A stretch of 64,000 nucleotides of DNA from Octopus vulgaris (taxonomy: Eukaryota): contig OX597818.1 in assembly GCA_951406725.2 (NCBI GenBank), positions 116,684,001 through 116,748,000 of the forward strand. The letters are read 5' to 3'. Below the pieces are notes generated by a model, which worked only from the letters and a program-made list of their open reading frames with translations, was not told where the DNA came from and ran no database searches. The translations under genes and the position numbers were made by a program. Shown here piece after piece: positions 3,140 to 62,246 of the stretch. Each line of letters begins with the position of its first letter. The first letter of the stretch is position 1.

Positions 3140-4105
3140 TATTCTAATTCTGGCACAAGGCCAGCAATTTTGTGTTGAGGTAGCATTCGTTTGCACCGTC
3201 ATCACTTGGCAACTACATTATTTTGCCAACCAAATAAAGCAAAGTTAACAAGAGCAGAATTTAAATTTAAAACGTAATGGACCAGAAGTAATTACCGCTA
3301 AGTATTTTGGCCGATGTGCTAATGGTTCTAACAGCTAATCACTTTGCACGTCTGACGTAATATTAGTTTCGTAGATTTGTACAAAGTCATCAGTTTCGGA
3401 AGAGAGGATAAATTGATTACCATTACTTCACCACTCAGTTTGTATCTATTTAATTCCGAAAGGATGAAAGGCAATGTCGACCTCAGCGGAATTTGAGCTG
3501 AGAACGTAAAGGGATGCAAACGGTTCTGCCACCCGGTCACTTTACATGTCTACCATGATACTGATTTTGGCACAAACTTTTACACAAGGACAGCAAGATC
3601 AAGAAGGTGGTGAATAGATTACATCGACCCCTGTGCTCAACTGGTTCTTATTTCATCGACCCCGAAATGATAAACGGCAAATTCGACCTTGGTGGCATTT
3701 GAACTCAGAATGTAACGACGGACGAAATGCCACTAAAAATTTTGTCCGGCGTGCTAACAATTCCGCCAGCTCGTCGCCTCCTTGCCTGACATAATATCGG
3801 TTTCAAATTTTGTTGGTACAAGGCCACCAGTATTTCACTGGTACTTATTTTATCGACCCCGAAAGAATAAAAGGCAAAGCCGGCCTCAGCAGAACTTGAA
3901 CTCAGAACCTAAAAACGGATGAAATGTCGGCGTGATAACGATTCTGTCAGTTTGTAAGCGTGACATATATTCTTTTCTCCTCTAGGCACAAGCTCCGAAA
4001 TTTTGGGGGATGAAAACCAGTCGATTAGATCGACCCCAGTATGCAACTGCTTCTTAATTTATCGACCCCCGAATGGATGAAAAGCAAAGTCGAGCTCGCC
4101 GCCTT
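3140..4105 (-). mobile_element. Cluster of diverged SINE family A copies
   Basis: Repeated atcgaccccgaaa.gat.aaaggcaaa.tcgacct..gcgga.tttgaactcagaa motifs at about 3240, 3460, 3655, 3850 and 4060. Confidence 0.8.
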
Positions 4106-9270: not shown

Positions 9271-11055
9271 TATTTGTAAAGTTATTTTCATTGTTATCAA
9301 CTGTCATTATGAATTTATTAATAACGTTAGAGTCAGAAATTTAAATGTGTTTTTTTTTTCATGTTCTCTATTGGATGTAGCAAAAGCGTGGTGTCGAACT
9401 GAAACTAGTTTTGACCAATGACACTAATAATGTTGTCTAAAGGTAGATACAAACATATAACAAACAAAACTACTACGTTTAAATTGAATCACGCCATCGT
9501 CTGCTTTGAAATTAGCAAATACTTTATCATCACGATGCAACAAGACAGAGCGCTGGGCTCTGTGTAGGCGGACAGTATTAAATAACTTGTCAGAAAATAT
9601 AAGGACAACTCAGTTGGCGACTTTGCGCTGTGAGTAAGCGTTTAAATATGTCAAGTCTGTTTGCTTTCTATGTCTTAATTGTTTTTTGTTTTGTATTCGT
9701 TACTCATGTGATGGTATATCGGTTTGAAATATTCTATTACATTGTCAACAATTATATATGTTGAGCAGGTATCGTCTTAGGTTAGCTAGTGCTTTGTGAA
9801 CTAAAGTTACATTTAGATCGAAACAAAATATTGTCGTGTTTCTGCATTTGGGTGGAGAGGATCTCTAAAATATCTGAATAAAGTGAAATATTTCGCTCGA
9901 ATTCTCGCAGGAATTTTTGTTATATTCAGAAATCTTCAAATATAAAGAATTGAACTCATCATTTTCATATTATTTTTTCCCTGATGCCGCGTTTTATACG
10001 CCCATATTTCATAATTTTTATGTTACACATTAGAAATACATATTTCTCTTTTCAATATTTGTTTTTCTTTTTCATTTGTTCTTATTGATGATATTTTTTT
10101 CTCATTTTGAATCCACTTGGTAACTACTTCACTATTGTAACCACGGAGAGCCAAACCATCGGCCATTATGCAATCCATTGCAACCGTTGTATTAGATAAT
10201 TGTTATAAATATTTCCTGCAAAGTTACACTTGAAAGTTTGGGTACATTTTCTATTTGGTTCGAGATATTTTCATCACTATTATTGGAAATATTTGGCGAG
10301 CGTGACGACAGCAGAATCGTTAGAGGGTTTGAAAAAAATGCATTCTCGCCATGGTCACTTTCACTTTTAAGGCCACCCTTCCCTCAAAAACTGCTGGACT
10401 TCATTGTTTTATATACCTTTGAATATGGCTTCCACGAAACAATCTAGTAAGCTATGCAAAGCTTGTTTTGTCTATATTTGCATTTGCACATGCAGAGGAA
10501 CATATATTAAAAAATAGTTACATACGCATAATCTCACTGCTACATATCCACATATACATATCCACATATATCTCCATTAATTGTATATCCTGATTGATGT
10601 GCTAAAAATATACTCACACACGCACTTACGTATACATAACATTCTATATATGTGTGTGTAAGCATAATCAGCTGAAATTGCGAGGATAATCTTGACTGAG
10701 GAAAGAAAACTTCGAATGACCCGTCCTTGTTTTCTTTGTATCGTCTATCTGGATATTTTGTTGTCCCGTTTTGTATTATATATATATATATATTTCGTTT
10801 TTGGATTTGGTTTGCAAGATTCTTTATATGAGTTCGTTTGTTGAACCATATTCTGTTGTGTCTGGGTTGGGTCATTTTCTTTTGGGGGCTTATAATGTAA
10901 CACACTCACCGGTAAAATATAAGGCACAAAAAGAAAATGACTCTCCCGAGACACAACAGTATATATATATAAAATATCATATTGTATAAAATTGTATTAT
11001 ATTATAATTTATATTTATGCAATATTTAATACGGTTTTCTTTTATATATTTTTAG

Positions 11056-12578
11056 GTAACTGCAATGAAGATACGAATCCATCACAGTCGAAAAGCAAAT
11101 TGAACGAAAACAATGTAGCTGAGCAACACCTTGATAAACGCAGCAGTGGCGAGTACAACCCGCACGATCTGAAAACAATAGTTGCGGCAATTCTTGAACG
11201 ACAAGAACAAGGCCAAAAACAATCGTCTGCATTGAGGTCTATGAACGAACTTGCAGGCGATCAGTACAGTGGTGATGCATTATCGCGTGTAGTTCAGCTT
11301 CTGAGAAGGTCTATGCCATCAGATTTCGATGAGTTTGAAAGACGATTAGCACCTGTTCCAAGATTAGGGCGTCTAAAGAAGAGATCTGTGCTCAGTAACC
11401 CTAACAAAGAAGTAGATTATGATGAAAATGAAGCAAATGATAACAACGAGAGCGCTGATAATATACTTTTCCCCCGCCAAATAACCCTCCCACGATATGG
11501 AAAAGATGAGGGATCTGATGCAGCAGATGCCGAACAATATTTGTCATCGGATTGTGAAATCTTTGATGCCTATGGCACATGTGTGCAGTATAAAATACCA
11601 AGAGAGAATGTGAAGAGGCAAGTTAGAATGTTGCGATTAGGAAAGCGTCAGATGCATCCAATAAAAATAGATGATGAAACAGGGATGGACAAAAGGTCAG
11701 AAGATTTTAACGTGGATGGAAACTCCGGTGAAAGTAAACGGGCAGTCTCAATGTTGCGTCTTGGAAGAAGTTTCAATGCTGGTGGGGAATCTGAAGAAAA
11801 TGAAATTCCAGTTTTCGACGAAGCCAAACGAGCAGTTTCTATGTTACGGCTTGGCCGCAGTGGACCATTCCTTGATAAACGTGCACTTTCAATGCTCCGA
11901 CTTGGTCGAAGCGAATTTGATCAGGAAAACACAGCTCTCCCAATAATGTATCCAGGACCAAATGGTTTCGAAAGCAACAAGCGTGCTGTTTCAATGTTGC
12001 GCCTCGGTCGCAGTATGTCTGCTGATGATAAAAGAGCTGTGTCTATGTTACGTCTCGGTCGCAGCGGATTTGATACAATGAAGCGAGCAGTTTCAATGTT
12101 ACGCCTTGGAAGAAACAGTGGATATCCATCAGAAAAACGAGCAGTGTCCATGTTGAGATTAGGACGATCAGGATCAGATGAAGACAAGAGAGCAGTGTCT
12201 ATGTTGCGGTTAGGACGATCAGGATCAGATGAAGACAAGAGAGCAGTGTCTATGTTGCGGTTAGGACGTAGTGGCGCAGATATAGAAGACGAAAAGCGAG
12301 CAGTGTCGATGTTAAGGCTTGGTCGTGGTGGTGCTGATAATATGAAGAGAGCTGTTTCTATGTTAAGACTAGGTCGAAGTGGAAGTGATGATATGAACAC
12401 GAAGAGGGCTGTGTCTATGTTGAGACTCGGACGAAGTGGAAATGACAATGTTGGGGAAGATAAACGTGCCGTCTCTATGTTGCGACTAGGCAGAAGCGAC
12501 AGCAATGCAAATAATAAGCGAGCCATGGCTATGCTACGATTAGGTCGTAGTAATGACACTAGTGCAAAAGAAACCTAA
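11056..12578 (+). CDS. myomodulin: Myomodulin neuropeptide precursor, last coding exon (5'-partial; the ORF-track start 10992 is intronic)
   Basis: 12x [11 protein letters not shown] plus [16 protein letters not shown] and [10 protein letters not shown] (MLRLamide is the molluscan myomodulin signature), acidic spacers, amidation glycines. T-rich tract plus tttag acceptor ends at 11055 (phase 1); stop TAA at 12576-12578. Confidence 0.95.
12159..12268 (+). repeat. Exact 51-bp tandem duplication inside the myomodulin CDS
   Basis: ttaggacgatcaggatcagatgaagacaagagagcagtgtctatgttgcgg at 12159 and 12210, plus 8 bp of a third unit. Confidence 0.95.
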
Positions 12579-24624: not shown

Positions 24625-25118
24625 CTCGGCACAAAGCCCGAAAGTTTTAGGGAGTGGGGCCAGTCAATTAGATCGACCCCAGTACGCAACTATATCTATG
24701 AGGAATTGACGGTCTTGATTTCCCAAGTCAAGAGTGAATTAGGGAAATAATTTGCGTGTGTAATTATTTTAATTAAAATAATTTTATAAAAATAAATAAA
24801 TATACACAAACGTCTATTTTTCAATACTTAATTTATCGACCCCGAATGGATGAAAGGCAAAGTCAACCTCGACAGATTTGAACTCAGAACGTAACGGCAG
24901 ACGAAATACCTATTTCTTTACTACCTACAAGAGACTAAGCATAGAGGGGACAAACAAGGACAGACACACGGATTAAGTCGATTACATCGACCCCAATGAG
25001 TAACTGGTACTTATTTAATCGACCCCGATAGAATGAAAGGCAAAGTCGACCTCGGCGGAGTTTGAACTCAGAACGTAGCGACGAACGAAATACTGCTAAG
25101 CATTTCGCCCGGCGTCTT
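24625..25118 (-). mobile_element. SINE family A (dimeric), interrupted by an insert of about 135 bp
   Basis: The consensus cgaccccagtacgcaact|ggtacttaatttatcgacccc is split by 24692-24825. Confidence 0.8.
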
Positions 25119-26394
25119 ATGAATATCACAAATATTGATGAAAGACAATATCAGGCTTCGCTCCATGAATATGGCAGTTATTGTTTGCTCTCTAAGCGTC
25201 CGTGTATCCATTTTGGTATGTGTAATGTAAGGAAGAAATATTTTAGATAATCTTTGAAAATACTGAATGAAATAATTGAAAACGGAAGCTAAGATCATTA
25301 TATCGTTGCAATATGTTTCTTGCTGTATTTAAATGAATGCCTACCAAGGATAATCGGAGGTACAGATACCAAACCATGACATGGTATCGCAAACATAATA
25401 TACTACAGAGATGGCATAGCATCAGATCCGCATCTACGGGAGATATACACATCTTCGGGCTTCTAACTATTTGTCTCAGATAGAATAGTTAAGATAAGGC
25501 TAGTATTCTGGGCTAGAGCGAAAATATTGACAAAATACTATTGACAAATACCTAAATTCGTGAACAAAGATTTTACTCGAGAAGTTGAAAGAGACCAGAG
25601 TGAGGATTACGAAAGAGAAAATACTTTGCAATTATCTATACTTCTCTAAACTTTGGAGAGGTGTACTATGCTGAAAAATGGGTAAACCCATGTAAACCTA
25701 AATTAAATAATGATCCCAATAAACAATACCAGTGTTTCTTTTAGCCTAACACAAACACTAGATCTTTTTCATCCAGTGATGGCGTTGCGTCTTCTTGCAA
25801 TCTGCAATACCCCAACCGCCAGTTAATAATTCTGAATTTCAATGTTGATTGAGTTTCTCTCAGCGTTATATCGTTCATTCCAGTTTCTGTTTGCCGGGAC
25901 CACCCCGACGCATGGACTCATCTAATGCGGGTTCATCATACAATGAAATAATGGCTAAGAATAATATACACTGTTTGTATTCCCTATTTAGTTTATGATA
26001 AATTTAAACATCTCTACCCTAAATGTTTAGGTTAGAAACGTATTATCAACATGGCCAGTGTTGACATCTTAATTAATTTCTTTTTACTTACTTCCTCATG
26101 TATTGAAACCGTCACATAATTTATGAGGTACACAACAAACACCCATACAACTCAATCGAGGTACCTCTCAGGCTTTTACTTCTATTATTACTATTGTATT
26201 TATTTCGTATTTGAATGATTAACTGTTTGACCAAAATGTTTAACATATGAGTTTGAAAAACTAGTAAAAAACGGCTGATTGATAAATTGGTTAACAGAAT
26301 AACTAACCCATTAACTAACAATAACAATAAAGGAGGGAACCAGTGCGTGTGTTTATTATTACCGGTACAATGCCCCTCCCAAGGTTCAATAGTA

Positions 26395-28696: not shown

Positions 28697-28769
28697 TAGG
28701 AGAGGTTTTATCAGTTGCCAGGATTGCATAGAAACAAAGGAAGACAGCTTAGGGTGTATGCGAACAATA

Positions 28770-28995
28770 CCTATTTCTATTTCTTAATAACCACAAGGGG
28801 CTAAACATAGAGGAGACAAACATAGGTATTAAGTCGATTACATCGACCCCAGTGCGTAACTGGTGCTTAATTTATCGACCCCGAAAGGATGAAAGGCAAA
28901 GTCGACCTCGGCGGAATTTGAACTCGCAACGTTACGGCAGTCGAAATACCACTAAGCATTTCGCCCGACGTGCTAACGATTCTGCCAGCTCGCCG
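28770..28995 (-). mobile_element. SINE family A with TSD
   Basis: gtatgcgaacaatacc duplicated at about 28756 and 28996. Confidence 0.9.
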
Positions 28996-33880: not shown

Positions 33881-34018
33881 ACCGTATGTTTTTATTGTCG
33901 TCGGTTACGTTCTTGTTCCGATTCGGGGATGTATATATAGACATATAGTGGCGCACGTACACCTTTTGGTCACCATATATATATATATACATACATACAT
34001 ACACATACATACATATAT

Positions 34019-34049
<31 letters not shown>

Positions 34050-34074
34050 CATACATACATACATGCATACATAC

Positions 34075-34135
<61 letters not shown>

Positions 34136-34140
<5 letters not shown>

Positions 34141-34624
34141 ATTGGCAGGGCTGGCCTGCTAGGTAGCCGGCCAGAATGCTAGAAATAGATCATCAACGAT
34201 CAAACGACAAGGGAAATTCTCTAGAGGAAGAATTCAGCGAACACCAGAACCAAATTTGGCGGGCAGGACATATGAAAAATTAAATAAAAAACAGACTTAA
34301 ATGCATACCTCGGTTTCGGTCTTAACAAAAGAATTACTTGCATAATTCAAGTGTCCGTGACTTCTTCAGTACATTCGGTCCTCGAGATGCAAAACGCAAG
34401 ACTAACCCCAGCTCTCTGTGTCAAGACAGACACGTGCTTAGTCTTACTGATTACATCGGGAATAAAATTTCAGATGTCTTGGTTCCGGCGCGCTAAGAGA
34501 CTCCTGAAGCGAAGGGCTGCAGTGAATAATTCACTGCGGGTAAAGCTTACTACTAGGGAACGTATTTATTTAAATATTTAAAAATTGAGGGAGATAAATT
34601 AATATTAGTTTTAATATCAATTTA
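34136..34624 (-). mobile_element. Inverted copy (489 bp) of the 546-bp hammerhead-bearing repeat
   Basis: Reverse complement of 35106-35594 with about 4 mismatches seen by eye. Confidence 0.95.
34299..34376 (-). ncRNA. Type I hammerhead ribozyme (copy 1)
   Basis: Reverse complement of 35354-35431. Confidence 0.8.
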
Positions 34625-34712
34625 TGTATGTATGTATGTATGTATGTATGTATGTATGTATGTATGTATGTATGTATGTATGTATGTATGTATGTATGTA
34701 TGTATGTATGTA

Positions 34713-34778
<66 letters not shown>

Positions 34779-34843
34779 TGTATGCATGTATGTATGTATA
34801 TATATATATATGGTGACCAAAAGGTGTACGTGCGCCACTATAT

Positions 34844-35697
34844 CAAGTAATTCTTTTGTTAAGACCGAAACCGAGGTATGCATTTAAGTCTGTTGTTTAT
34901 TTAATTTTTCATATGTCCTGCCCGCCGAATTTGGTTCTGGTGTTCGCTGAATTCTTCCTCTAGAGAATTTCCCTTGTAGTTTGATCGTTGATGATCTATT
35001 TCTAGCATTCTGGCCGGCTACCTAGCAGGCCAGCCCTGCCAATATACACATATATTTGAATTTTCTCTGACTCCTCAGATTTTTTGAATGCTGGACTACT
35101 GGTTTTAAATTGATATTAAAACTAATATTAATTTATCTCCCTCAATTTTTAAATATTTAAATAAATACGTTCCCTAGTAGTAAGCTTTACCCGCAGTGAA
35201 TTATTCACTGCAGCCCTTCGCTTCAGGAGTCTCTTAGCGCGCCGGAACCAAGACATTTGAAATTTTATTCCCGATGTAATCAGTAAGACTAAGCACGTGT
35301 CTGTCTTGACACAGAGAGCTGGGGTTAGTCTTTCGGTTTGCATCTCGAGGACCGAATGTACTGAAGAAGTCACGGACACTTGAATTATGCAAGTAATTCT
35401 TTTGTTAAGACCGAAACCGAGGTATGCATTTAAGTCTGTTTTTTATTTAATTTTTCATATGTCCTGCCCGCCAAATTTGGTTCTGGTGTTCGCTGAATTC
35501 TTCCTCTAGAGAATTTCCCTTGTAGTTTGATCGTTGATGATCTATTTCTAGCATTCTGGCCGGCTACCTAGCAGGCCAGCCCTGCCAATATACACATATA
35601 TTTGAATTTTCTCTGACTCCTCAGATTTTTTGAATGCTGGACTACTGGTTTTAAATTGATATTAAAACTAATATTAATTTATCTCCCTCAATTTTTA
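34844..35697 (+). mobile_element. 1.56 tandem units of a 546-bp hammerhead-bearing repeat (retrozyme / Penelope pseudo-LTR-like)
   Basis: caagtaattcttttgttaagacc recurs at 34844 and 35390 (period 546); ends in (TA)n. Confidence 0.85.
35354..35431 (+). ncRNA. Type I hammerhead ribozyme (copy 2)
   Basis: Stem I gaatgta/tgcattt; CTGAAGA 35361-35367; long stem II a-gtc...gaattat(GCAA)gtaattc...gac-c; GAAA 35413-35416; stem III ACC(ga)GGT; predicted cut after GUA at 35424. Confidence 0.8.
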
Positions 35698-35751
35698 TAT
35701 ATATATATATATACTTGCATGTACGTTTATGTGTGTGTGGGTGGGTGTTTT

Positions 35752-36535
35752 GGATCTTTTCTGTTTGATAGACGGAATTTTCTAGTTAACTAAACAATTT
35801 GAAACTTCGTATACTGGTAGAATGTGTCAAAAGAAAACATTATTGTAAACAAAATTGAAAACAAAATTGTAATTCGTAACTTAAACGTAGTTTAATTTTA
35901 CGAATTTTAACCAATGAAATCGCAGCATTCGAGCTCAAATTATTTACTGCGTCTAAAAACTCACACGCACACGTCTTATTCATCTTCGTCTCTTCTTCTG
36001 TCTTCTGTCTTCTACATGTGCTAGAAATAACAGCTATATCTCTTAAATCGATGAATTTCGTCTCCCAATAAAAATATTAACGATATTTTTTGAATATTTT
36101 CTTTATTTTTTTTTACCGAAAAGACTTCTCCCATGGTTTTGAAGGGCCAGAAACAACAAAAACAAAACAATAATATGCGTAAATCGGTCTCGAGTTTGCG
36201 CGTGGAGTGTGAGTAGTATTGTAAAAATTTGCGAAATATTTTTTCATAAAAGGATGCTTCCAGCTTGTCGGTAGCTGTGATATAAATTGGGAAAAAAATC
36301 CTCGGCACCAGTGCGTAATTGGTACTTAATTTATCGACCCCGAAACGATGAAACATTAAGCCCCCCCCCCTTCTGGTTTATTTACCTTTTGTGCAAATTT
36401 GTTGCGGCAAGTGGCAAAACACGAACGTGTATGTATGCTTGTGTGCGTATGTGTGTGTATGTATATTTCCGTTTGTATGTGTGTGTACGCTTATACATTC
36501 ATTACTATGTGCTTGTGCAAATGTATATGCATGTG

Positions 36536-36573
<38 letters not shown>

Positions 36574-36855
36574 TGTGTGTGAGTGTGTCTGTGTGTGTGT
36601 GGGTCGTGCGTCTGCTATATTTCTTTATCAATATCGATAACGCAGCAATGCTGGGATTTCATTGGTTAAAATTCGAAGATGTTGGGATATCATTGGTTAA
36701 AATTCGTAAAATTAAACTACGTTTAAGTTACGAATTACAATTTTGTTTTCAATTTTGTTTACAATAATGTTTTCTTTTGACACATTCTACCAGTATACGA
36801 AGTTTCAAATTTTTTAGTTAACTAGAAAGTTCCGTCTATCAAACAGAAAAGATCC
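35752..36855. mobile_element. Non-autonomous DNA transposon with TIRs of about 170 bp and an 8-bp TSD (Merlin- or MULE-like)
   Basis: ggatcttttctgtttgatagacgg... / ...ccgtctatcaaacagaaaagatcc; TSD ggtgtttt at 35744-35751 and 36856-36863; inserted in a SINE B. Confidence 0.9.
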
Positions 36856-38117
36856 GGTGTTTTTGTTCGCTTTCCACCACCGCTTGACAACAAATGTTAA
36901 TGTGTTTGAGTCACAGTAGCTTAGCGGTGGGCTTGAAAATAAGTCCCAGCTTGAAAACTCCTAAGTACTAGGATCGAGTCATTCGATTGGAAATACTTCA
37001 GGGTCACTGCCCCTGCATGGGCGCTGTCTAATGCCTGAGATTTGTAAAAAGAAAAAAAAAAAGAAAAATGACTGACAAAAATACTTGATGATGTCATTCT
37101 ATACAAGATCACTGTAACCGAATTACGTTACCTGTAATAATACTTTCTACTCTAGGCACAAGGCTTAAAATTTGGGGGGACGGGGGCCAGTCGATTAGAA
37201 AATTTCCAGAGAAAGTTCTGTAAAAGTTACTTGCCAAAGTATTTAGAGCGTGAAAACATCTGGTCTTCCATCACTTCCTCTTCGCAAAACTTTATGGTTT
37301 TTAAAATAGCAAGTCTAATATGAGCTCTGTTTTGTTTCACGCCAATCTGGATACATTATTTTATATTTAAATATGGTCATAAAACGTTTTCACCGTATCA
37401 GAAGAGTTAATATCTTTCATTTTACGTGATTAATTACCAAATTACAGAGGTGCTACATTTTATCAGGCGGTCAATGTTTCTATAATTAAAGGCAAACAAA
37501 TTAGCCGAAATTTGTATATCATTTGTATATAATTTGTAAAGATACGAAGTTCTCATTTATCTAAATAAATAGAATTCTGACTTTGCAATCATACAAAAAA
37601 TTTAATTTAATTCTTTATTAAAAGCTTCTCAGGCATCCAAACAGAACAGAACCAAATCATGGCAATATAAGATCTAACATTCTTTTGAAATAAAACTGAA
37701 ATTCTACATCACTGATTATTGAGAAAACATCTACAATGCTCCCAGTCATGTTAAGCATTTTCTGCTGTTTATAAACAGCTAGCAATAAAAATCCATTAGT
37801 TTTGATAATGAATCACAATCTATAAAGAATGATAAGGTTATTACATGCACGCCCATATACACAAAGACTCGCTCATAATCAAAAACAGGCACGCTCACGC
37901 TAAAAGACACCTCCCGGACTTCATGTATATATATAGGGAGAGAGAAGCAATTATGTGGATAAACAGCTTATTATCCGCTCACATTGATTTGTCTTATAGC
38001 CACTCTTTACCTCGCGGAGTTCGTCCCTCGTAATGACATCGGATTTTTAGTTCGAATCTTTGAGCAATAAAAGTGCAAAGCGTTTTCTGTTTCAAGAACG
38101 TCTGGTGCATCTAGCAA

Positions 38118-38944: not shown

Positions 38945-39572
38945 GCCTTCTATTCTAGGAACAAGTCCTGAAATTTGGGGTAGGGGGCTGGTCGATTAGA
39001 TCGACGTCAGTACACAACTAGTACGTAATTTATCGACCTCGAAAGAATGAAATGAAAAGAAAAGTTGTCAACCCCGGCGAAATTTGAACTGAGAACATAA
39101 AGACAGACGGAATACCACTAAACATTTCCTCCGGCATGCTAGCGTTTCTTATTTCTTTATTGCCCACAAGGGGCTAAGCATAAAGGGGACACACAAGGAC
39201 AGACAGAGGAATTAAGGCGATTACATCGACCCCAGTGCGTAACTGGTACTTATTTTATCGACGCCACAAGGATGAAAGGCAAAGTCGTCGACCTCGGCAG
39301 AATTTGAAGTCAGAACGTAAAGAGTCAGAGAAAATACCTATTTCTTTACTACCCACAATGGGATAAACATAGTGGGGACAAACAAGGACAAACAAACGGA
39401 TTAAGCCGATTACATCGACCCCAGTGCGTAACTGGAACTTAATTTATCGACCCCGAAAGGATAAAACGCAAAGTCGACCTCGGTGGAATTTAAACTCAGA
39501 AGGCAGCGGCGGACGAAATACCGCAACGCATTTCGCACGGCATGCTAACGTTTCTGCTAGCTCACCGCCTTA
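38945..39572 (-). mobile_element. Multimeric SINE family A (about 3 modules) within a single TSD
   Basis: ttacctgtaataat at 38931-38944 and 39576-39589. Confidence 0.85.
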
Positions 39573-51088: not shown

Positions 51089-51129
51089 ACACACACGCAC
51101 ATGTATGGTGTACTTCTTTCAGTTTCCGA

Positions 51130-51348
51130 TTTTTTTATTGCCCACAAGGGTCTAAACAAACAGGGATAGACAAAGGGATTAAGTCGATTATATCGACCCC
51201 AGTGTGTAACTGGTACTTATTTAATCGACCCCGAAAGCATGAAAGGCAAAGTCGACCTCGGCGGAATTTGAACTTAGAACGTAGCGGCAAACGAAATACT
51301 GTTAAGCATTTCGCCCGGCGTGCTAACGTTTCTGCCAGCTCGCCTCCT
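51130..51348 (-). mobile_element. SINE family A
   Basis: Near-consensus reverse complement. Confidence 0.9.
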
Positions 51349-59568: not shown

Positions 59569-61329
59569 TCTATGTATATATATTGGATACAAAGTTGCGA
59601 ATCACCATCCCCGATTGCCCTACGTGTATTGCATTCTATGTCATGTTAAAACATTCGATTTATACTCATTATATCAGTACAATAATGACCGCAAACATAC
59701 TTGTCAGTTGAATAAGTGTTATTGGAAACTCTATCGCTTCGTATTCGGTTTCATTGCGTGGTTGTTTTCGCAATATCTTTTACTATACTTTGATGACAGT
59801 GAACGCCTTCTAAATGAAATTTTATACACAGGAGATACGTGGAAACCTGTTGCAGTAGCCATTCCTTTAATGTGGGTGAGTTATCACTTAATCTATTGTT
59901 TCAGTGTTAGCGGAACTTTGTTGCAATCATTCGGTGAATACCAGGCTTCTAATGATAATTTTCGCACCAGATTCAAACATTATTCGCAGACCCTGCCTTT
60001 TTAAGTCTGGCCAAGCTATACAATTTGTATTACAGTTCCTTAGTTGACAAGACTGTTAACTTGTTCGCATTGTTATATCATTCAGAAACTCCGAAACGAT
60101 GCCCTGAAAGTATATAAATGAAATCAAATTGCATACTGCAATGTTAAAGCTTGTAAATTCAATGCTAAATACTAAATAAATTCCATACATTTATGGCAAA
60201 TGTGTGCCATAAATGCTTTAAATATGTGTACGAGAAGGAAGTCTATATTCCCTCCTCACTGGAACAAAAACGGTTCAACTCACTGGAAAGGAAAAGAAAC
60301 CAAACTTTGTTTTCAAAATACCTGCCGCCATTTTTTAAAAGAACGGGAAGATACATTGAAACATGTAGCTGTAGATAAATGTAAATTACAATCCAGAAAC
60401 ACAAAGACTGCAAATGCAAGCAATCAGAGTTGAGCTGAATGTAAATGCCATCATTAAAAAAGGGTTTTGCAATGGTAAAGTTGTAATACCAACGGGATTT
60501 GAGTTTGACGTGCAGAGACGGTCAAAACTAACTTTTGGAACACATTTTAATTTTCTTATAACATAACGTTTCTGTCATGTCATTTTCAGAATGTTGAACA
60601 AAACTATTGTTTTTATGTCACAGTAATTATAAAGATATTAAAGAATTTTGCGTCTAAAACCAAAGATAAAGCTAAAATGAAAATAAAAGTTGCAAATTCA
60701 TATACTAATAATATGATGAGCCTTAAGCTTAAATATGAATGGATCCCTTGGGAGTGAGCTATACTGACAAACGGGGAAAACAAATGATAAAATGTATAAT
60801 AATTATGTTTACAATGTAATAAACTTTCAATGCGTGATTTGCCCGTGTTTCGTCATTGCAAACGACGGTTCTAGTTATTTCATGACTCTTTTATAGGAAC
60901 AACATTGGACTTTCCAGCATAAATATTTAATGCTGCAAGTCGTTTGCTTTTATGAAGGCTAGTTAGAAATATTTGCCATCCAAATCTGCTGTATATTTTT
61001 TTTAAATGCGCCTAATATGGCATTAAAAAAATGAAGTGCTTACTATATTGTGTTTTGGTTCAGGCATTAAAGCGAACGTTTAAGATGAGGCGAGGCACAA
61101 AATCGATTTTTTGACCAATGAATGAGAAAATTCTCAGATGTATGGGAATTTCAAAAGAGCATGAAATGAAAATAACTGAATACTGTAAAGTATTTTTTCC
61201 GGATCTATAGTTCTGTTACCTTTATATATAACTCGTGTGAAAGAAATGAAAATAAGCAAGAAATGGAAACTTTTACCTGGTATTTATGCGTGTTATAACA
61301 AAGAAATACGTTCACTACAAGTGGTAGCA

Positions 61330-61556
61330 TAGCTATTTCTTTACTACCCACAAGGGGATAAACACTGCGGGGACAAACAAGGACAGACAAAAGGATTAAG
61401 TCGATTACATCGACCCCAGTGCGTAACTGGTACTTATTTTACCGACCCCGAAAGGATGAAAGGCAAAGTCAACCTCGGCGGAATTTGAACTCAGAACGTA
61501 GCGGCAGACGAAATACCGCTACGCATTTCGCCCGGAATGCTAACTATTCTGCCAGC
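61330..61556 (-). mobile_element. SINE family A
   Basis: Near-consensus reverse complement. Confidence 0.9.
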
Positions 61557-62246
61557 ATACCTTCATAATAAATTAAAAAGAAAAATGTCCACTACTATTA
61601 ATGAGATAATGACTCATATACATGCGAAATATCTTTTATTCTCATAGTGTAACATACTATTTCGGTATTAAGTACCATTTCTTCTTCGTATTTTAAGTTT
61701 TGTTTCTGTTACGACGTATAACTTGCTGCATTTTTATACAATGTGCTACAGTAATTTACGAAGCTCAGTTTCTCGTTGCAAAATTAAGCAACCTAAACGA
61801 TGTGTCTGATAATGTAAGATAATTACATGGTTGGTTATTGATGTTACGATTTTCTGTATTGAGGTATTTTTTGTAGATTACTGCCAGGCTAGTTCTAATG
61901 AAGCAAAACTATCGTCGGAAAATTTCGTGCAATGAGCAGTAAGTGTTTTGATATATAAGCACTACAATATCCGAGGCACCAGTTCTTTATAAAATGGTTG
62001 GTTATGATTTGAGAAAAATTTGGCTCGTATTCCAACAAGTCGTATAGTCACTTATAAGCTCAAACCGCAAGAATAATAGGAAAGTGTAAGAGAGAACCTA
62101 GTATTTTATCAGTCGTATAGGGTTTGCATATAATATTTACTAAAATCATTTTAATGTTTCCAAATGTTTCCACTTCAATTTTTTGCATTATTTATTATTT
62201 TTCTATGTGCTTATTTCTTTCGGGCCTTGTGACTATAATTAGTAAC

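Follow-up and report, generated by a model that had tools for sequence, protein, structure and literature searches.

Published work already covers animal non-LTR retrozymes (PMC7229834) and derives them from Penelope-like elements (10.64898/2026.07.22.740005). For the latter elements, an inverted copy, a "tail," and two reverse transcriptase (RT) start sites have likewise been described, and the origin of their inverted, tandem, and tailed insertions is still treated as open (PMC8557442, PMC11167929). Like the published retrozymes, a 546-nt repeat of Octopus vulgaris consists of noncoding tandem units, each with a type I hammerhead ribozyme, and it is low in GC, is predicted to form a self-paired circle, and coexists with Penelope-like elements (PMC7229834; 10.64898/2026.07.22.740005). 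At 546 nt, the unit exceeds the 170 to 400 nt given for invertebrate retrozymes and lies within the range of 51 to 972 reported for vertebrates, so that we do not take length as a defining trait. Unlike animal retrozymes as described, the octopus copies are dispersed as short arrays that have two fixed ends and an inverted arm placed head to head, and the words "inverted" and "microsatellite" do not appear in the main text of PMC7229834. Moreover, 24 of 57 frog families are reported to have a coding element with a homologous terminal repeat, whereas no such element was found here.

The locus lies in a 64,000-nucleotide stretch (contig OX597818.1, positions 116,684,001 to 116,748,000, forward strand; the window) of a 2.8-Gb genome and is made up of the following features, in window coordinates.

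33943 to 34135, plus strand: left target flank, ~40 unique bases and a (TA)n/(TACA)n microsatellite
34136 to 34624, minus strand: inverted head-to-head arm, monomer positions 228 to 546 and then 1 to ~169, with a short ("S") end in (TA)n
34293 to 34380 (34295 to 34390 in another delimitation), minus strand: inverted arm's hammerhead, complete, with the predicted cleavage falling between 34306 and 34305
34625 to 34843, minus strand: inverted duplicate of the left target flank between the arms, found in 1 of 46 inverted loci
34844 to 35697, plus strand: main arm, 1.56 units of 546 bp, 5′ truncated within the hammerhead stem II loop, with a long ("T") end in (TA)n
34844 to 34891, plus strand: 3′ half of a hammerhead, CUGAAGA core absent, predicted cut site after 34878
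34879 to 35424, plus strand: cut-to-cut monomer, 546 nt, noncoding, predicted to be highly self-paired as a circle
35350 to 35437 (35340 to 35435 in another delimitation), plus strand: complete type I hammerhead of the main arm, predicted cut after A35424
35592 to 35697, plus strand: "tail," ~105 nt between two fixed ends, with two predicted hairpins and a 24-nt core common to sister families
35698 to 35714, no strand assigned: right target (TA)n, read from the sequence

The positive-strand tandem ran head to tail from 34844 to ~35697 with a period of 546 bp, and a BLAST self-match of it reached 35714 solely through a TA run. The 489-bp inverted arm differed from the plus copy at 4 of 489 bases. 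These values agree with the initial annotation, which had described a 546-bp unit in 1.56 tandem plus copies and a 489-bp inverted copy at ~99% identity. The annotation overlooked an inverted duplication: the left flank recurs, in opposite orientation, as the 219-bp spacer between the arms, with the ~40 unique bases identical and the microsatellite lengths changed. Only two complete hammerheads are present, one per strand, and with a single complete plus-strand hammerhead, the locus is probably not a self-sufficient source of monomers. By the criterion for an "active" retrozyme, the window locus would not qualify and others would, for example, L009, L035, L071, and L090. In a transcript across the locus, a 489-bp hairpin would form and could mask the ribozyme. 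We conclude that the main arm and the inverted copy arose in one insertion event.

Other repeats and one long frame were seen in the window. A separate dispersed MITE-like element of ~1.1 kb with 177-bp terminal inverted repeats (35752 to 36855) begins 38 bp from the retrozyme end and is 91 to 98% identical at at least 39 other loci among the matches listed; the 177-bp inverted repeat was considered as a part of the retrozyme and was assigned to this element instead. Abundant dispersed repeats of ~230 bp (3543 to 3775, 24906 to 25138, 28762 to 28994, 39145 to 39566, 51112 to 51344, 61329 to 61561, and others) are presumably SINE-like. A 545-aa open frame at 10941 to 12578 on the plus strand contains many KR-flanked AVSMLRLG repeats and is what we take to be a myomodulin neuropeptide precursor exon.

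Every letter of the hammerhead proposed in the initial annotation was present in the main arm. Stem I is formed by GAAUGUA/UGCAUUU (35354 to 35360 and 35425 to 35431) plus a distal helix, the core by CUGAAGA (35361 to 35367) and GAAA (35413 to 35416), and stem II by 45 nt with a GCAA loop and two internal loops, and the GUA triplet places the predicted cut after A35424. Stem III (ACC-GA-GGU) consists of 3 bp around a 2-nt loop and is nearly palindromic, so that cleavage likely needs a dimer; the predicted energy of stem III pairing with itself as a duplex was −8.6 kcal/mol. In a double hammerhead, each core cuts the site of the other copy, and the cut at 35424 would thus need a second RNA. Short palindromic stems III are likewise found in dimer hammerheads of newt and axolotl and in minimal Penelope hammerheads (PMC7229834, PMC4209133), and an extra base after CUGANGA, as here, is typical of the Penelope type. 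Unlike those ribozymes, the octopus motif has an extra C before GAAA, and its stem II, 45 nt in length, is interrupted by two internal loops and capped by a GNRA loop. Because of the extra C, an A lies opposite a C at the step from the core to the first G-C of stem II, a position normally taken by a G-C pair; across 28 distinct copies, it was A·C in 24 and G-C in 4. The A·C opposition may slow the hammerhead.

The claim that each full copy folds as a hammerhead held for the letters of the plus copy and needs correction in other respects: just two hammerheads at the locus are complete, the first plus copy retains a 3′ half, and the isolated motif (96 to 106 nt) did not adopt the hammerhead fold under single-strand folding (z 0.52, not above shuffles). 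Without stem III, the hammerhead had an energy of −13.1 kcal/mol versus a minimum of −17.7 kcal/mol for the same motif. Comparison with Rfam models, which the initial annotation had proposed, returned no hammerhead match at the gathering score across the window and none at an E value of ≤10 over 33900 to 37000; the microRNA-like matches that Rfam gave in the window were microsatellites.

Conservation of the core and stems, also put forward as a check, was found across the family. For 30 copies (28 distinct) chosen to span subfamilies, with the 3′ motif invariant by selection, 95.7% of stem cells were paired, a value reached by 0 of 500 shuffles, and slid-partner controls paired in only 28 to 40% of cells. 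RNAalifold recovered stems I and II unaided from the alignment. Three pairs, two in stem I and one in stem II, were changed on both sides across subfamilies; their number was not above shuffles (280/500), and they represent a few changes inherited within subfamilies rather than 33 independent events. Among 47 copies selected by the 3′ motif alone, 45 retained CUGANGA, in which nothing but position 7 alternated, and the stem II loop was GCAA or GUAA in most copies. A model built from the covariation alignment detected two sister families, B and C, at E values of 3e-6 to 3e-3, which are to be read as rough, and with further paired changes; family B has a GUGA loop.

To estimate family size, exact matches to two hammerhead motifs were counted genome-wide. 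A 26-mer from the 5′ half had 157 matches and a 16-mer from the 3′ half had 506, and the reversed controls had none, so that the unit, whose copy number the initial annotation had left to be checked, is not single copy. Of these hundreds of loci, 75 were sampled: a young set of 35 and, from the 16-mer matches listed, 40 without the young 26-mer, mostly on contigs 1 and 2. As the loci were chosen by hammerhead motifs, read-through of the cut site is by construction, and two of them (L084 and L085) appear to represent a single event in duplicate. Relative to the window monomer, identity ranged from ~99% to ~84%, and the copies lay scattered on many chromosomes, in arrays of one to four units, which bears out the suggestion that longer arrays might exist. 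Both sister families are noncoding and older: family B, of which 30 loci were sampled, has units of ~530 to 548 nt at 65 to 79% identity, and family C has a unit of 507 nt at one locus. The core of the tail, common to the three families, had 1,218 genome matches. Four family B loci (L130, L131, L139, and L142) were solo tails with just the 110 to 120 nt between the fixed ends, within a microsatellite.

A head-to-head inverted arm was present in 46 of the 75 loci. Arm 3′ ends fell at two sites, ~168 and ~273 nt after the cut, in 107 of 120 cases, so that the fixed ends are ~105 nt apart, and 5′ ends were ragged. The targets were microsatellites, (TA)n, and 86 of 120 arm 3′ ends directly abutted sequence of at least 70% TA/AT, a count in which BLAST absorbs part of the run. 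Among the 46 inverted loci, 33 combined a short and a long end, 1 had two long ends, none had two short ends, and 12 had one end elsewhere; one site per arm was therefore the rule in 33 of the 34 loci with both ends classed (p ~2e-9), and the Penelope-type tail was on one end only in the same proportion (33/34). In 39 of 46 inverted loci, the arm junction fell between −7 and +8 nt. Two of the 46 junctions were fold-back palindromes and another was the flank duplicate of the window, and self-priming fold-back (PMC3846280) was rejected as the origin of the inverted arms, as it fits just those 2 of 46. We make no claim of an enrichment of 5′ ends at the cut site (7/129 by BLAST), as most continue past it. 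We conclude that the 546-nt family has two paired sites that probably serve for priming.

This is the anatomy of Penelope-like elements. Like the Hydra clade (Craig et al. 2021, PMC8557442), the family has (TA)n targets, a hammerhead near the 3′ end, partial tandems, an inverted 5′-truncated copy, and a tail at one end; unlike that clade, it has no open reading frame (ORF) and a tail of ~105 nt rather than the 30 to 40 bp in print. Like Poseidon PAc of Anolis (Frangieh et al. 2024, PMC11167929), it has AT-rich targets and would have two internal RT starts that define the tail, with both target strands cut and extended. In PAc, priming is not homologous to the target, whereas the ends here are AU-rich patches that blend into (TA)n, and a strict pairing of one site per arm is not reported for PAc in the text of PMC11167929 that we consulted. 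Noncoding Penelope-like derivatives in head-to-tail copies are also known from Chlamys (MRC1 type; PMC8557442), but most of those have no hammerhead, and at the 3′ end they are similar to their coding partners.

A protein search from a neighboring fragment returned many long ORFs, and six that were aligned contained RWK/RWR, DKT-like, CxCX5C, and CxxC..CxH motifs, with the set complete in four. RWK, DKT, a CxCX5C linker, CxxC and CxH around E/N, (TA)n targets, and a hammerhead are traits of the Hydra clade, and file S1 of Craig et al. 2021 lists Hydra-1_Obim for an octopus (PMC8557442). Assignment to this clade follows from motifs in the alignment rather than from a tree with reference sequences; these motifs overturned a first reading as Neptune, and Pfam gave no relevant family in the three candidate ORFs searched. 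At least seven Hydra-clade families (L106 to L125 and L172 to L182) were seen, several of them young, with intact ORFs of 720 to 1,090 aa and asparagine-rich inserts. Most coding families had type I hammerheads with a 51- to 60-nt stem II, a palindromic stem III, and (TA)n ends; their tails were ~62 to 148 nt, and 11 of 14 loci with opposite-facing ends, counted by eye, combined a short and a long end in (TA)n. In one microsatellite-rich stretch (L177, 6400 to 8501; L182, 1 to 5200), a family C retrozyme lies next to two distinct Hydra-clade elements, which suggests a shared insertion hotspot.

Eight coding families were compared with the unit, and none had clear nucleotide homology to it. Just one aligned above all 60 shuffles (z 3.6 to 4.1); it shares the A·C feature, has at least 150 copies and intact ORFs of 842 aa, and scored only E 0.3 to 0.5 with the alignment-built hammerhead model. 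A 775-aa Penelope-like family with Pfam RT and GIY-YIG matches was considered and rejected, as it has no likeness to the unit. That family (L126 and L127) appears very active, with a tandem period of ~4,271 bp and at least 150 near-identical copies, and a pattern search found no hammerhead in it. A coding partner suggested by the end of a 7.5-kb contig was also dropped, as three motif searches for it were empty and a fourth gave just solo tails and the noncoding family B. We conclude that the 842-aa Hydra-clade family is the best candidate for a helper and not a proven partner.

As the insertions bear the footprints of Penelope-type retrotransposons, the repeat likely borrows their enzyme. We are confident that it is a nonautonomous Penelope-like element, whether or not a circle is involved, and we favor, with moderate confidence, the fuller reading of a non-LTR retrozyme mobilized in trans by a Hydra-clade enzyme from a cut and circularized RNA. 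In agreement with the initial annotation, which had proposed a recently active nonautonomous hammerhead element moved by a Penelope-like RT, the family is young and dispersed, its stems covary, it has no ORF, and its ends are of the Penelope type. In the fuller reading, two hammerheads would associate by way of the palindromic stem III, each cutting the other, and ligation would close the monomer to give a circle of 546 nt. An RT-endonuclease borrowed from the Hydra clade would then nick both strands of (TA)n, and two cDNAs would be primed at the AU-rich patches ~168 and ~273 nt past the cut, travel back around one template, sometimes for several units, and be united head to head through microhomology. 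At the window locus, one cDNA may have folded back on the left flank before joining, giving the inverted flank duplicate.

Two published results count against the ribozyme-cut part of this reading: 8 of 9 frog retrozyme dimers remained uncleaved, and the Penelope-like RT of the anole inserted uncut RNA, with the ribozyme not needed, and ribozyme mutants irrelevant, in vitro (PMC11167929). The lack of a hammerhead fold in the isolated motif and of an Rfam match also weighs against it. The same element and helper might act on an uncut linear or multimeric read-through RNA, possibly two RNAs joined by stem III, in which case no circle is needed and the hammerhead would be slow, protein dependent, or incidental. 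Tandem source arrays for such a template exist, and we regard it as a serious but rather unlikely alternative. Divergence between arms of one locus was 0.9% (29 pairs) versus 4.8% between loci (6,611 pairs), and 16 rare variants were common to every unit of a locus (12 spanning both arms, one in the window); such locus-private variants argue against an uncut template. Rare differences restricted to a single unit numbered 204, many of them alignment gaps. In five loci (L012, L016, L022, L030, and L035), one unit read TCA at monomer positions 455 to 457 and the other units read GCG. TCA is the state of older subfamilies and was present on different haplotypes, and the window plus unit reads TCG (35333 to 35335). 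TCA on the young background was also seen in an independent large run, so that an assembly error is not a sufficient explanation. These one-unit variants are not accounted for by a single template; they suggest more than one and in this respect favor uncut RNA. Uncut RNA fits less well with a unit length that stays at 507 to 549 nt in three families that are ~30% diverged, with stems that stay paired through substitutions, and with the predicted circular fold of the monomer (−136.8 kcal/mol, z −4.0), as low as which none of 40 shuffles folded. A 585-nt contig that wraps around the unit was set aside as evidence for a circle, as a tandem array would give the same. Among the listed runs that contain the unit, none is on record as RNA, and their contigs were counted neither for nor against expression. 

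We consider it improbable that the copies are 5′-truncated terminal repeats of a coding Penelope-like element that our searches did not find. Most coding-element insertions in print are truncated to the 3′ part, and our sample comprised 75 family and 30 sister-family loci of hundreds, with genome searches that score the best candidates only. However, of 136 distinct tail copies, 92 ended in microsatellite, 36 entered the next unit, and 8 were otherwise placed or cut off, and none of the 136 in the sampled loci was followed within 900 bp by a Penelope-like ORF, the linkage that the initial annotation had thought worth seeking. Likewise, no ORF for RT plus GIY-YIG lay between terminal repeats in the sampled loci, and the longest ATG frame of the monomer is 64 aa, in keeping with the unit having been called noncoding. 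ORF-less head-to-tail 546-bp arrays, the longest of about four units, exist, and the eight coding families without clear homology also weigh against this explanation.

A satellite or rolling-circle element acting at the DNA level, with the hammerhead as a passenger, is conceivable in that unequal crossing-over could homogenize tandem arrays. Such an origin is very improbable in view of the dispersed arrays of one to four units, the ragged 5′ ends with paired fixed 3′ ends, and the (TA)n targets and end anatomy, which exactly match those of coding Hydra-clade elements. Finally, an assembly artifact at the window locus, to which the placement of the rare inverted flank duplicate in microsatellites and the absence of a contig spanning the whole stretch among those listed might point, is scarcely credible, as the family and its anatomy recur genome-wide, the unit is present in contigs of independent runs under several organism labels, and the arms are not identical.

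We conclude that the retrozyme class is known and that the 546-nt family and its end pairing were not found in print. No cephalopod retrozyme was found in the literature covered, with Repbase and Dfam outside its scope; the supplement of PMC7229834 lists invertebrate retrozymes and might include some. The same literature, as far as its available text goes, contains no tail this long and no statement of one-site-per-arm pairing beyond a "tail at one end," and the main text of an octopus repeat annotation (PMC13282606) mentions neither hammerheads nor ribozymes.

Mobilization of animal retrozymes by Penelope-like elements has so far rested on co-occurrence and sequence likeness. In the 546-nt family, a retrozyme bears the insertion footprint of Penelope elements, with a strong one-site-per-arm rule and haplotypes common to both arms, and the family is of value as an uncommonly clear trace of how Penelope insertion works on a small noncoding RNA. 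The family also yields candidates for circular RNA in a cephalopod, and the 546-nt RNA together with an intact 842-aa candidate helper in the same genome offers a small system for circular templates, dimeric hammerheads, and two-site priming. More tentatively, and at less than even confidence, we suggest that the octopus may harbor a long-lived, viroid-like circular RNA lineage with no coding counterpart, the insertions of which record twin priming. In twin priming, one Penelope-like enzyme dimer would use opposing nicks in the target to initiate a pair of cDNAs, each at its own fixed site of a single RNA circle. If true, twin priming would explain in one step why Penelope-like elements have an inverted copy, a tail on one side, and partial tandems.
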